From: Escherichia phage REP2
DNA: 64,000 nucleotides
Reading direction: 5' to 3' (one strand)
Sequence record: OQ174501.1
In this document: positions 28,061-29,399 of the stretch, piece after piece
Layout of the letters: every line of letters begins with the position of its first letter
Position numbering within the stretch: the stretch's first letter is position 1
Position numbers and translations under genes: made by a program
The notes under the pieces: generated by a model
The model's database searches: none
The model's input: only the letters and a program-made list of their open reading frames with translations
Told to the model about the DNA's origin: nothing

Positions 28061-28515
28061 TGGAATTTAAAGACTTTTCAACGGGTCTTTATGTAGCAGC
28101 TAAGTTTTCAGAATTAACACTTGACGCGCTGGAAGAACTCCAGCGCTCTTTACGTGTTCCTAATCCAGTTCCTAGAGAAAAAATTCATTCGACTATATGT
28201 TATTCAAGAGTAAATGTTCCATATGTTCCATCGAGTGGAAGTTTTGAAGTAGCTTCTTCTGGACATTTAGAAGTGTGGAAAACACAAGATGGATCGACTC
28301 TTGTACTTGTGCTAGATTCTGAATATCTGCGCTGTCGACACATGTATGCGCGGGCACTAGGTGCTACACATGATTTTGATGATTACACACCGCATATAAC
28401 ATTGTCTTATAATGTTGGGCCCTTATCATTTAGTGGTGATGTACAAATTCCGGTCGTATTAGATCGTGAATACAAAGAGCCTCTTAAACTCGATTGGGCA
28501 GATGATTTAAAATAA
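28057..28515 (+). CDS. 57B: conserved hypothetical protein gp57B
   Basis: 152 aa, position after 57A as in T4. Confidence 0.7.
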
Positions 28516-28535
28516 TTTCACAAAGTTGTTTACAT
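28501..28535 (+). repeat. direct repeat, copy 1 (gene 3' end plus early promoter -35)
   Basis: GATTTAAAATAATTTCACAAAGTTGTTTACA repeated at 28831. Confidence 0.7.
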
Positions 28536-28557
28536 GCTGATGAGGTAGTGATACTAT
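28528..28557 (+). promoter_or_regulatory. T4-type early promoter
   Basis: GTTTAC-N18-TGATACTAT. Confidence 0.7.
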
Positions 28558-28587
28558 TATCTCATCAAAATTAATTAGGAAAATAAA

Positions 28588-28845
28588 ATGAAAACTTTCA
28601 AAGAGTTTACTACAAAAACTACTATCACTGAATCTTCCCACGGTATGGAAGTAAAGCTTGGAATGGCTTTAGCTGAAGCTGAGCGTCTTTTCTCTCGTAT
28701 TAAAGAACTTGCTGCTGCAGTAGATCCTTCATCTTTTAAAGGAGACCAAACGAAAGTTAAAGCACTTTTAGCATTATGCTCCGATGCAGGAGAAATTGCT
28801 AAAAATGGTTCTAAGATGAAAAAACGATTAGAAGATTTAAAATAA
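28588..28845 (+). CDS. internal-protein-like protein with CTS-like N-terminus
   Basis: 85 aa starting MKTFKEFTTK, resembling the T4 capsid-targeting sequence MKTYQEFIAE; own early promoter. Confidence 0.6.
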   Translation: MKTFKEFTTKTTITESSHGMEVKLGMALAEAERLFSRIKELAAAVDPSSFKGDQTKVKALLALCSDAGEIAKNGSKMKKRLEDLK

Positions 28846-28865
28846 TTTCACAAAGTTGTTTACAT
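28831..28865 (+). repeat. direct repeat, copy 2
   Basis: same 31-nt sequence as 28501-28535. Confidence 0.7.
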
Positions 28866-28887
28866 AGGGTTTTAGTTGTGATACTAT
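28858..28887 (+). promoter_or_regulatory. T4-type early promoter
   Basis: GTTTAC-N18-TGATACTAT. Confidence 0.7.
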
Positions 28888-28921
28888 TACCCTATCAAAA
28901 CAAAACCAAATGGAAATCAAA

Positions 28922-29155
28922 ATGAAAACTTACCAAGAATTTATTGCTGAAACTGCTGATGTAAAAGTTGAGTTTATTTACACTGGCAAGAAAGATAAAA
29001 TGGGTGAAATGCCTCATGGAGTTCTTCGTGATGCATTAGATAATTTCGGTCAACTCGCCGCAGAAGATTACGGTGATAAAATTGTTGTTACTGGTCCTGC
29101 TGCAGTTATTGAAAAATGGGCAGCAGAAAATAAATCAATTTTTCGTAAAAAATAA
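28922..29155 (+). CDS. internal protein with canonical CTS
   Basis: 77 aa starting exactly MKTYQEFIAE; own early promoter. Confidence 0.7.
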   Translation: MKTYQEFIAETADVKVEFIYTGKKDKMGEMPHGVLRDALDNFGQLAAEDYGDKIVVTGPAAVIEKWAAENKSIFRKK

Positions 29156-29185
29156 GTTTACTTTTAGATGGGGTAGTGATACTAT
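29156..29185 (+). promoter_or_regulatory. T4-type early promoter
   Basis: GTTTAC-N18-TGATACTAT, then leader CCCTATCAACTACTGAGGAG. Confidence 0.65.
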
Positions 29186-29213
29186 TACCCTATCAACTAC
29201 TGAGGAGAATAAA

Positions 29214-29399
29214 ATGAAACGTTGTGAATTAATTCGAAATGTTGCTATTGCAATTTCTGCTTCCGCTTTCAGTTTTTCAATGTTTGTTGGATTTATATGC
29301 GGATTATTGACTACGGCAGAAAATGTTTTTTCACTTGTAGTAGCATTTTTAATTGGTTTAATTGCTATTGTTATGGATAAAATTTCTAAAGGTGAATAA
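29214..29399 (+). CDS. small hydrophobic membrane protein
   Basis: 61 aa from ATG after RBS GAGGAG; two predicted TM segments. Confidence 0.5.
   Translation: MKRCELIRNVAIAISASAFSFSMFVGFICGLLTTAENVFSLVVAFLIGLIAIVMDKISKGE

Follow-up and report, generated by a model that had tools for sequence, protein, structure and literature searches.

The region between 57B (acb1) and trna.4 in the 64-kb stretch of Tequatrovirus DNA analysed here (the window) is the ipI-type hyperplastic locus of this genus, and it carries two cassettes, ip5 and ip6. Taken as a whole, we consider it highly likely that these two internal-protein (IP) cassettes encode anti-defence proteins that are packaged in the head and injected, and that they are exchanged through the repeats found in their promoters and leaders. 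Already on record are the locus and its gene names, the logic of the capsid-targeting sequence (CTS), the shuffling by way of promoters and, as of 2025, the role of Ip6 against McrBC; a sequence-only reading of the same DNA had missed that the locus is named and published. It represents a textbook case of a phage counter-defence hotspot, in which swappable promoter-gene cassettes would deliver ready-made inhibitors along with the DNA. Current understanding is unchanged by this locus, and its practical value lies in annotation: the gene starting at 28588 is ip5, that at 28922 is ip6 (candidate McrBC inhibitor), that at 29214 is trna.4, and 57B is Acb1.

Genes of the 57B-trna.4 interval

The genes are arranged in the order gene 1 (dNMP kinase), 57A, 57B, ip5, ip6, trna.4, trna.3, trna.2 and tRNAs, which is the order found in T4 except for the ip genes, the T4 counterpart of the interval being 57B-ipI-trna.4. 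Over positions 28057-29420 the window does not differ from Escherichia phage REP3 (100% identity), and at least 80% of this locus is covered by 228 phage records. Its four genes are the following.

28057..28515, + strand: 57B / Acb1 (anti-CBASS nuclease); Pfam Acb1, 2.7e-60; 57B in the T4 annotation
28588..28845, + strand: ip5; 85-aa precursor; phrog_3499 'internal head protein', 1.9e-49; Ip5 in RB32, RB70, T2 and fFiEco06
28922..29155, + strand: ip6; 77-aa precursor; phrog_8111 'internal virion protein', 1.2e-52
29214..29399, + strand: trna.4; 61 aa; phrog_1692; annotated trna.4 in T4 and fFiEco06

The conserved left flank of the locus is formed by 57B, with near-identity to T4 that reaches as far as the start of ip, and the conserved right flank by trna.4, of which the T4 copy is near-identical as well. 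The trna.4 protein is hydrophobic, with two membrane segments predicted from hydropathy, and has no CTS. Both ip5 and ip6 are named in public records (fFiEco06, RB32, RB70, T2 and VR7). Since 57B is Acb1 and acb1, ip5 and ip6 adjoin each other, known and probable counter-defence genes lie side by side. An ATG at 28910 was rejected as the start of ip6, since it lacks a Shine-Dalgarno sequence, is not conserved in Bas39 and would bury the CTS.

Two observations were made downstream of the locus. The trna.3 homologue (29399-29802) is frameshifted by a 2-nt GT insertion near 29418-29421, due either to a mutation or to a sequencing error; the site reads TATTATGTGTATATG in the window versus TATTATGTATATG in fFiEco06 and T4. 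All that is left is an 84-aa, GTG-started ORF (29548-29802), and the REP3 record annotates no more than that. Just past the tRNA cluster, a 184-aa ORF (31159-31713, + strand) contains a MUG113/T5orf172 (GIY-YIG-like) domain (2.3e-09) and is possibly a homing-endonuclease-like gene; T4 carries segB within its tRNA cluster.

Promoter repeats and proposed cassette exchange

The sequence-only reading had assigned a separate early promoter to each of the three small genes past 57B (28588, 28922 and 29214). This was confirmed by exact matches to GTTTAC-N15-TGATACTAT at 28528, 28858 and 29156, one before each gene. The spacing of 18 nt that had been given for this pattern was incorrect, N18 being the distance from GTTTAC to the TACTAT hexamer. 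When up to 2 mismatches were allowed, the pattern was found 10 times in the whole window, as compared to 0.28 matches expected, and none of 100 shuffles equalled this number. The promoters and the direct repeat that overlaps two of them are located as follows.

28504..28535, + strand: 32-nt exact direct repeat, copy 1; 57B 3' end, AT-rich upstream element and -35 box
28528..28557, + strand: ip5 early promoter; hairpin TGATGAG...CTCATCA centred on the -10 box; -14.8 kcal/mol, z -2.65
28834..28865, + strand: 32-nt exact direct repeat, copy 2
28858..28887, + strand: ip6 early promoter; hairpin ATAGGGT...ACCCTAT around the -10 box; -19.4 kcal/mol, z -3.76
29156..29185, + strand: trna.4 early promoter; hairpin GATGGGGT...ACCCTATC; -16.1 kcal/mol, z -3.05

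The first of these promoters carries the annotation 'predicted early promoter' in fPS-65. All three contain an inverted repeat centred on the -10 box, which had been overlooked previously; the stem is TGATGAG/CTCATCA in cassette 1, versus ATAGGGT/ACCCTAT in cassettes 2 and 3. A terminator scan of the locus found none, and the promoter hairpins are not followed by a U-tract.

The direct repeat had been described as 31 nt long and placed at 28501 and 28831. Its existence was borne out, whereas its size and position had to be corrected: it comprises 32 exactly matching nucleotides at 28504 and 28834, with a mismatch at 28503/28833, and the two copies, when extended, share 83% identity over 71 nt. 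A -10/leader block common to cassettes 2 and 3 was also found as claimed; it is the 21-nt sequence GTGATACTATTACCCTATCAA, present in the ip6 promoter (28878-28898) and in the trna.4 promoter (29176-29196).

Comparison with related phages indicated how these elements relate to the gene content of the locus, which is ipI only in T4, ip6 only in Bas39 (FriedrichMiescher), and ip5 plus ip6 in the window. When aligned with T4, the window is near-identical over 57B and the promoter and into the beginning of the CTS, up to about 35 nt from the start of the ORF; the similarity then disappears until the -10 box of the trna.4 promoter, exactly where it sets in again. The spacer between 57B and ip6 in Bas39 contains a hybrid promoter, made of the left half of the 57B-ip5 spacer and the right half of the ip5-ip6 spacer of the window, and this is the product expected of a crossover within the 32-nt repeat. 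Similarly, the ipI-trna.4 spacer of T4 consists of the left half of the ip5-ip6 spacer of the window followed by the trna.4 leader, as expected of a crossover in the 21-nt block. Across the three phages, the cassette boundaries thus fall within promoter/leader elements, with hybrid promoters at the junctions. These mosaic junctions support the conclusion, already suggested by the sequence-only reading, that cassettes are exchanged by recombination at their promoters. As cited in PMC2839356, Repoila et al. 1994 ascribed the variation of the locus to recombination at promoter/stem-loop elements, and the same mechanism of cassette exchange appears in the literature on promoter-early stem-loops (PeSLs), which in T4-type phages form mobile regulatory cassettes (PMC2839356, Arbiol et al. 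2010; PMC4122927).

We considered the possibility that the repeats are independent copies of the early-promoter consensus that have been held alike by selection, in which case they would be uninformative on duplication or cassette exchange. Within the 32-nt repeat, about 20 nt (TTTCACAAAGTTGTTTACA) do correspond to the general consensus of T4 early promoters, so that part of the repeat is expected even without recombination, and both TTTCACAAAGTTGTTTACA and TG(G/A)TACTAT...CTATCAAC are also found at the unrelated early promoters at 32716, 47617, 49056 and 60031. Yet the exact identity reaches 12 nt (GATTTAAAATAA) into coding sequence, namely the 3' ends of 57B (last codons GAT TTA AAA TAA) and ip5, both of which end in ...DLK*. 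Furthermore, this is the sole exact 32-mer repeat within the 64-kb window, and the cassette boundaries of T4 and Bas39 coincide exactly with these repeats, with hybrid promoters. Selection on independent promoter copies therefore appears a quite improbable explanation, and recombination between the repeats is the reading that we retain.

Each cassette comprises a T4 early promoter whose -10 box lies within a hairpin (PeSL-like), as well as a ribosome-binding site and a small ORF with a CTS at its start. In the mechanism that we propose, the near-identical promoter/leader sequences around each ORF would serve as substrates for homologous recombination, through which cassettes would be gained, lost and swapped between phages, leading to the differing ip sets of T4, Bas39 and the window.

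Further early promoters are present on the + strand at 32716, 44028, 47617, 49056 and 60031. The extended consensus there, which includes the transcribed leader, reads TTTCACAAA(A/G)TTGTTTACA ... TG(G/A)TACTATACAACTATCAAC. Repeats of such length, scattered genome-wide, are potential recombination substrates beyond the IP locus too.

Proposed packaging and function of Ip5 and Ip6

The N-termini MKTFKEFTTK and MKTYQEFIAE had been likened to the T4 CTS, and comparison with T4 IPI, IPII and IPIII agrees with this. The leader of Ip6, MKTYQEFIAE/T (a slash marks the predicted cut), is the same in all 10 residues as the propeptides with which T4 IPII and IPIII begin. The leader of Ip5, MKTFKEFTTKTTITE/S, is of the IPI type and close to the T4 IPI leader MKTFKEFTSTTTPVSTITE, both containing MKTFKEFT and the cleavage motif ITE. 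The first 10 residues of IPIII are enough for packaging; mutagenesis of the CTS has pointed to positions 4 and 7 as important for targeting and to positions 8 and 10 as important for processing, and gp21 cleaves after L/I-x-E (PMC9026906), releasing a propeptide of 10-19 residues. In Ip5 and Ip6 alike, position 4 is aromatic, position 7 is F and an I-x-E motif is present; the gp21 cut sites predicted from this motif, ITE15/S in Ip5 and IAE10/T in Ip6, would give propeptides within this range of lengths. Among homologues, ITE/SSHG is invariant in Ip5 and IAE/[TSA]A is conserved in Ip6, with variation at other positions of the leader.

Both mature products are predicted to be small: 70 aa, 7.5 kDa and pI 9.2 for Ip5; 67 aa, 7.4 kDa and pI about 6.5 (not basic) for Ip6. 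Of the two variable IP loci, their genes occupy the one that holds ipI in T4. The gp21 gene is outside the 64-kb window, and no relevant virion proteomics or injection data on Ip5 and Ip6 turned up in the literature searched. From their leaders we infer that Ip5 and Ip6 are packaged, cleaved by gp21 and injected. By analogy with T4 IPI-III, the CTS would dock the precursor on the scaffolding core of the prohead, and the prohead protease gp21 would then cleave behind I-x-E. The mature proteins of 7-8 kDa would stay with the DNA inside the head and accompany it into the cell, so that they could act ahead of any phage gene expression.

Alternatively, the CTS-like N-termini might be relics of a recombining promoter/leader module, carried by early, cytoplasmic proteins that are not packaged. 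The homology with T4 does run from the promoter into the CTS, making the latter part of the recombining module, and the genes are preceded by early promoters. No late promoter (TATAAATA) was found directly upstream of the cassettes; the nearest such motif lies at 27467-27474 (+ strand), inside gene 1 and upstream of 57A, and, as the cassettes have early promoters only, it is the nearest candidate source of late read-through into ip5 and ip6. However, ipI of T4 likewise lies behind an early promoter, and IPI is packaged. If the leaders were relics, one would also not expect the residues for targeting and cleavage (aromatic 4, F7, I-x-E) to be intact or the cleavage junction to be invariant in homologues. 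Finally, an inhibitor made only after injection would come too late against restriction of the incoming DNA. We therefore regard the absence of packaging as very improbable and favour packaged, injected proteins.

A third CTS-bearing gene is present elsewhere in the window (37225-37698, + strand). It encodes a 157-aa protein starting with MKTYQEFITE/AA (Pfam DUF7412, 5.7e-96; phrog_3155 'internal virion protein'). The order at this second IP locus is e (36245-36739), denV (36799-37215), ip gene, versus e-ipIII-ipII-denV in T4.

The CTS-bearing genes had been proposed as candidate anti-defence effectors, and for the second of them, ip6, a phenotype from another phage bears this out. Bas37 (KarlGJung, MZ501089) has the same layout, 57B-ip5-ip6-trna.4, with bas37_0260 at the position of ip6, and Ip6 of the window is 100% identical to Bas37_0260. 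In the HIDEN-SEQ study (preprint 10.1101/2025.11.20.689424), transposon disruption of bas37_0260 led to a strong loss of fitness on E. coli K-12 BW25113, which was absent on a strain without McrA, McrBC and Mrr. A clean deletion rendered the phage sensitive to McrBC specifically, and not to McrA or Mrr. The authors of that study also point out the conserved N-terminal packaging signal of Bas37_0260. Because the two proteins are identical and the knockout is McrBC-sensitive, Ip6 is, on the genetic basis of the Bas37 phenotype reported in this preprint, an McrBC counter-defence factor and a candidate inhibitor of this enzyme. In the proposed mechanism, injected Ip6 would neutralise the type IV restriction enzyme McrBC. 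Its mature part is predicted to adopt a ferredoxin-like alpha/beta fold, and Ip6 is found in 230 phage records.

Each of T4 Ip1, Ip2 and Ip3 is an inhibitor of a different GmrSD enzyme, and the GmrSD variants tested were not reproducibly inhibited by ip4-10 (PMC12373910). Sensitivity to one specific restriction system upon loss of the gene is on record, from the Bas37 preprint, for Ip6 alone among the two proteins studied here, ip4-10 being negative on the GmrSD variants.

We also considered that Ip5 and Ip6 might be mainly structural or DNA-condensing proteins of the head interior, like IPIII, and that the McrBC phenotype might be indirect, for instance through coating of the DNA. The negative results of ip4-10 against GmrSD variants would fit with this, as would the slower head assembly of T4 IPIII mutants (PMC9026906) and the small, basic and, according to its model, helical nature of Ip5. 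Yet the Ip6 knockout is affected by McrBC but not by McrA or Mrr, and it grows normally on a strain free of restriction systems. Ip6 is moreover near neutral and not a polycation that would coat DNA, and T4 Ip1-3 are specific for one enzyme each. The presence or absence of ip genes differs among such close relatives as T4, Bas39 and the window, which fits accessory genes of an arms race and argues against a structural role. A mainly structural function thus seems unlikely to us, and a counter-defence role is the interpretation that we keep.

Ip5 was modelled (AF2) as a two-helix hairpin with moderate confidence (pLDDT 71.7). Relatives of mature Ip5 were found in 494 phage records, and Ip5 itself in about 270 genomes of Tequatrovirus. 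In Mosigvirus AV118 (OR352948, 2438-2719), an Ip5-like gene of 54% identity is located between the lysozyme gene (e) and denV, indicating that the Ip5 family is present at both IP loci; 226 phage records have this diverged form. For both Ip5 and Ip6, a Pfam search returned no family and a sequence search of the PDB nothing meaningful, while a search of 5.8 billion proteins yielded relatives from T-even phages only (11 clusters for Ip6, 5 for Ip5) and no cellular homologues; a literature search under the names 'Ip5' and 'Ip6' found no papers. In the proposed mechanism, Ip5 would most likely neutralise a host defence different from the one targeted by Ip6. More specifically, and only tentatively, Ip5 could be an injected inhibitor of a non-GmrSD defence, as Ip6 proved to target McrBC. 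If true, this would widen the repertoire of the CTS cassettes past type IV restriction.

Comparison with known systems

The closest precedent is T4 IPI (IPI/IPI*), the injected inhibitor of GmrSD(CT596), which has a similar small size and is encoded at the same 57B-trna.4 locus behind the same early promoter. At the DNA level, T4 and the window are nearly identical from 57B through the promoter to the start of the CTS, and the leaders of IPI (MKTFKEFTS...ITE/A) and Ip5 (MKTFKEFT...ITE/) are alike. In contrast, the mature parts of Ip5 and Ip6 are unrelated to IPI, with no similarity past the leader, and the target of IPI is GmrSD whereas that of Ip6 would be McrBC.

T4 IPII and IPIII (Ip2 and Ip3), inhibitors of GmrSD(ECOR21) and GmrSD(ECOR17), share their leader MKTYQEFIAE with Ip6 and have an injected, anti-type-IV-restriction role like that proposed for Ip6. 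They differ from it in being encoded at the other IP locus (e-ipIII-ipII-denV), in their unrelated mature sequences and in their targets. The classical T4 internal proteins are also basic, unlike mature Ip6.

The Ip5 and Ip6 proteins of other T-even phages (Repoila et al. 1994; RB70 Q38378, RB32, T2, VR7 and fFiEco06; Bas37_0260) are 98-100% identical to those of the window and are found at the same position and in the same order. Ip5 of the window differs from that of Bas36 and Bas37 in its leader (T8 versus A8).

The promoter elements resemble PeSLs (Arbiol 2010; Comeau 2014), in which an early promoter is combined with a stem-loop overlapping the -10 box. Like the elements of the window, PeSLs flank small non-essential ORFs in a hyperplastic region and coincide with cassette boundaries. 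The IP-associated elements of T-even phages are, however, analogues rather than homologues of the PeSLs of RB49 and phi1: with T4 early promoters as their basis, they have weaker and more AT-rich stems that lack polyG/polyC (PMC2839356).
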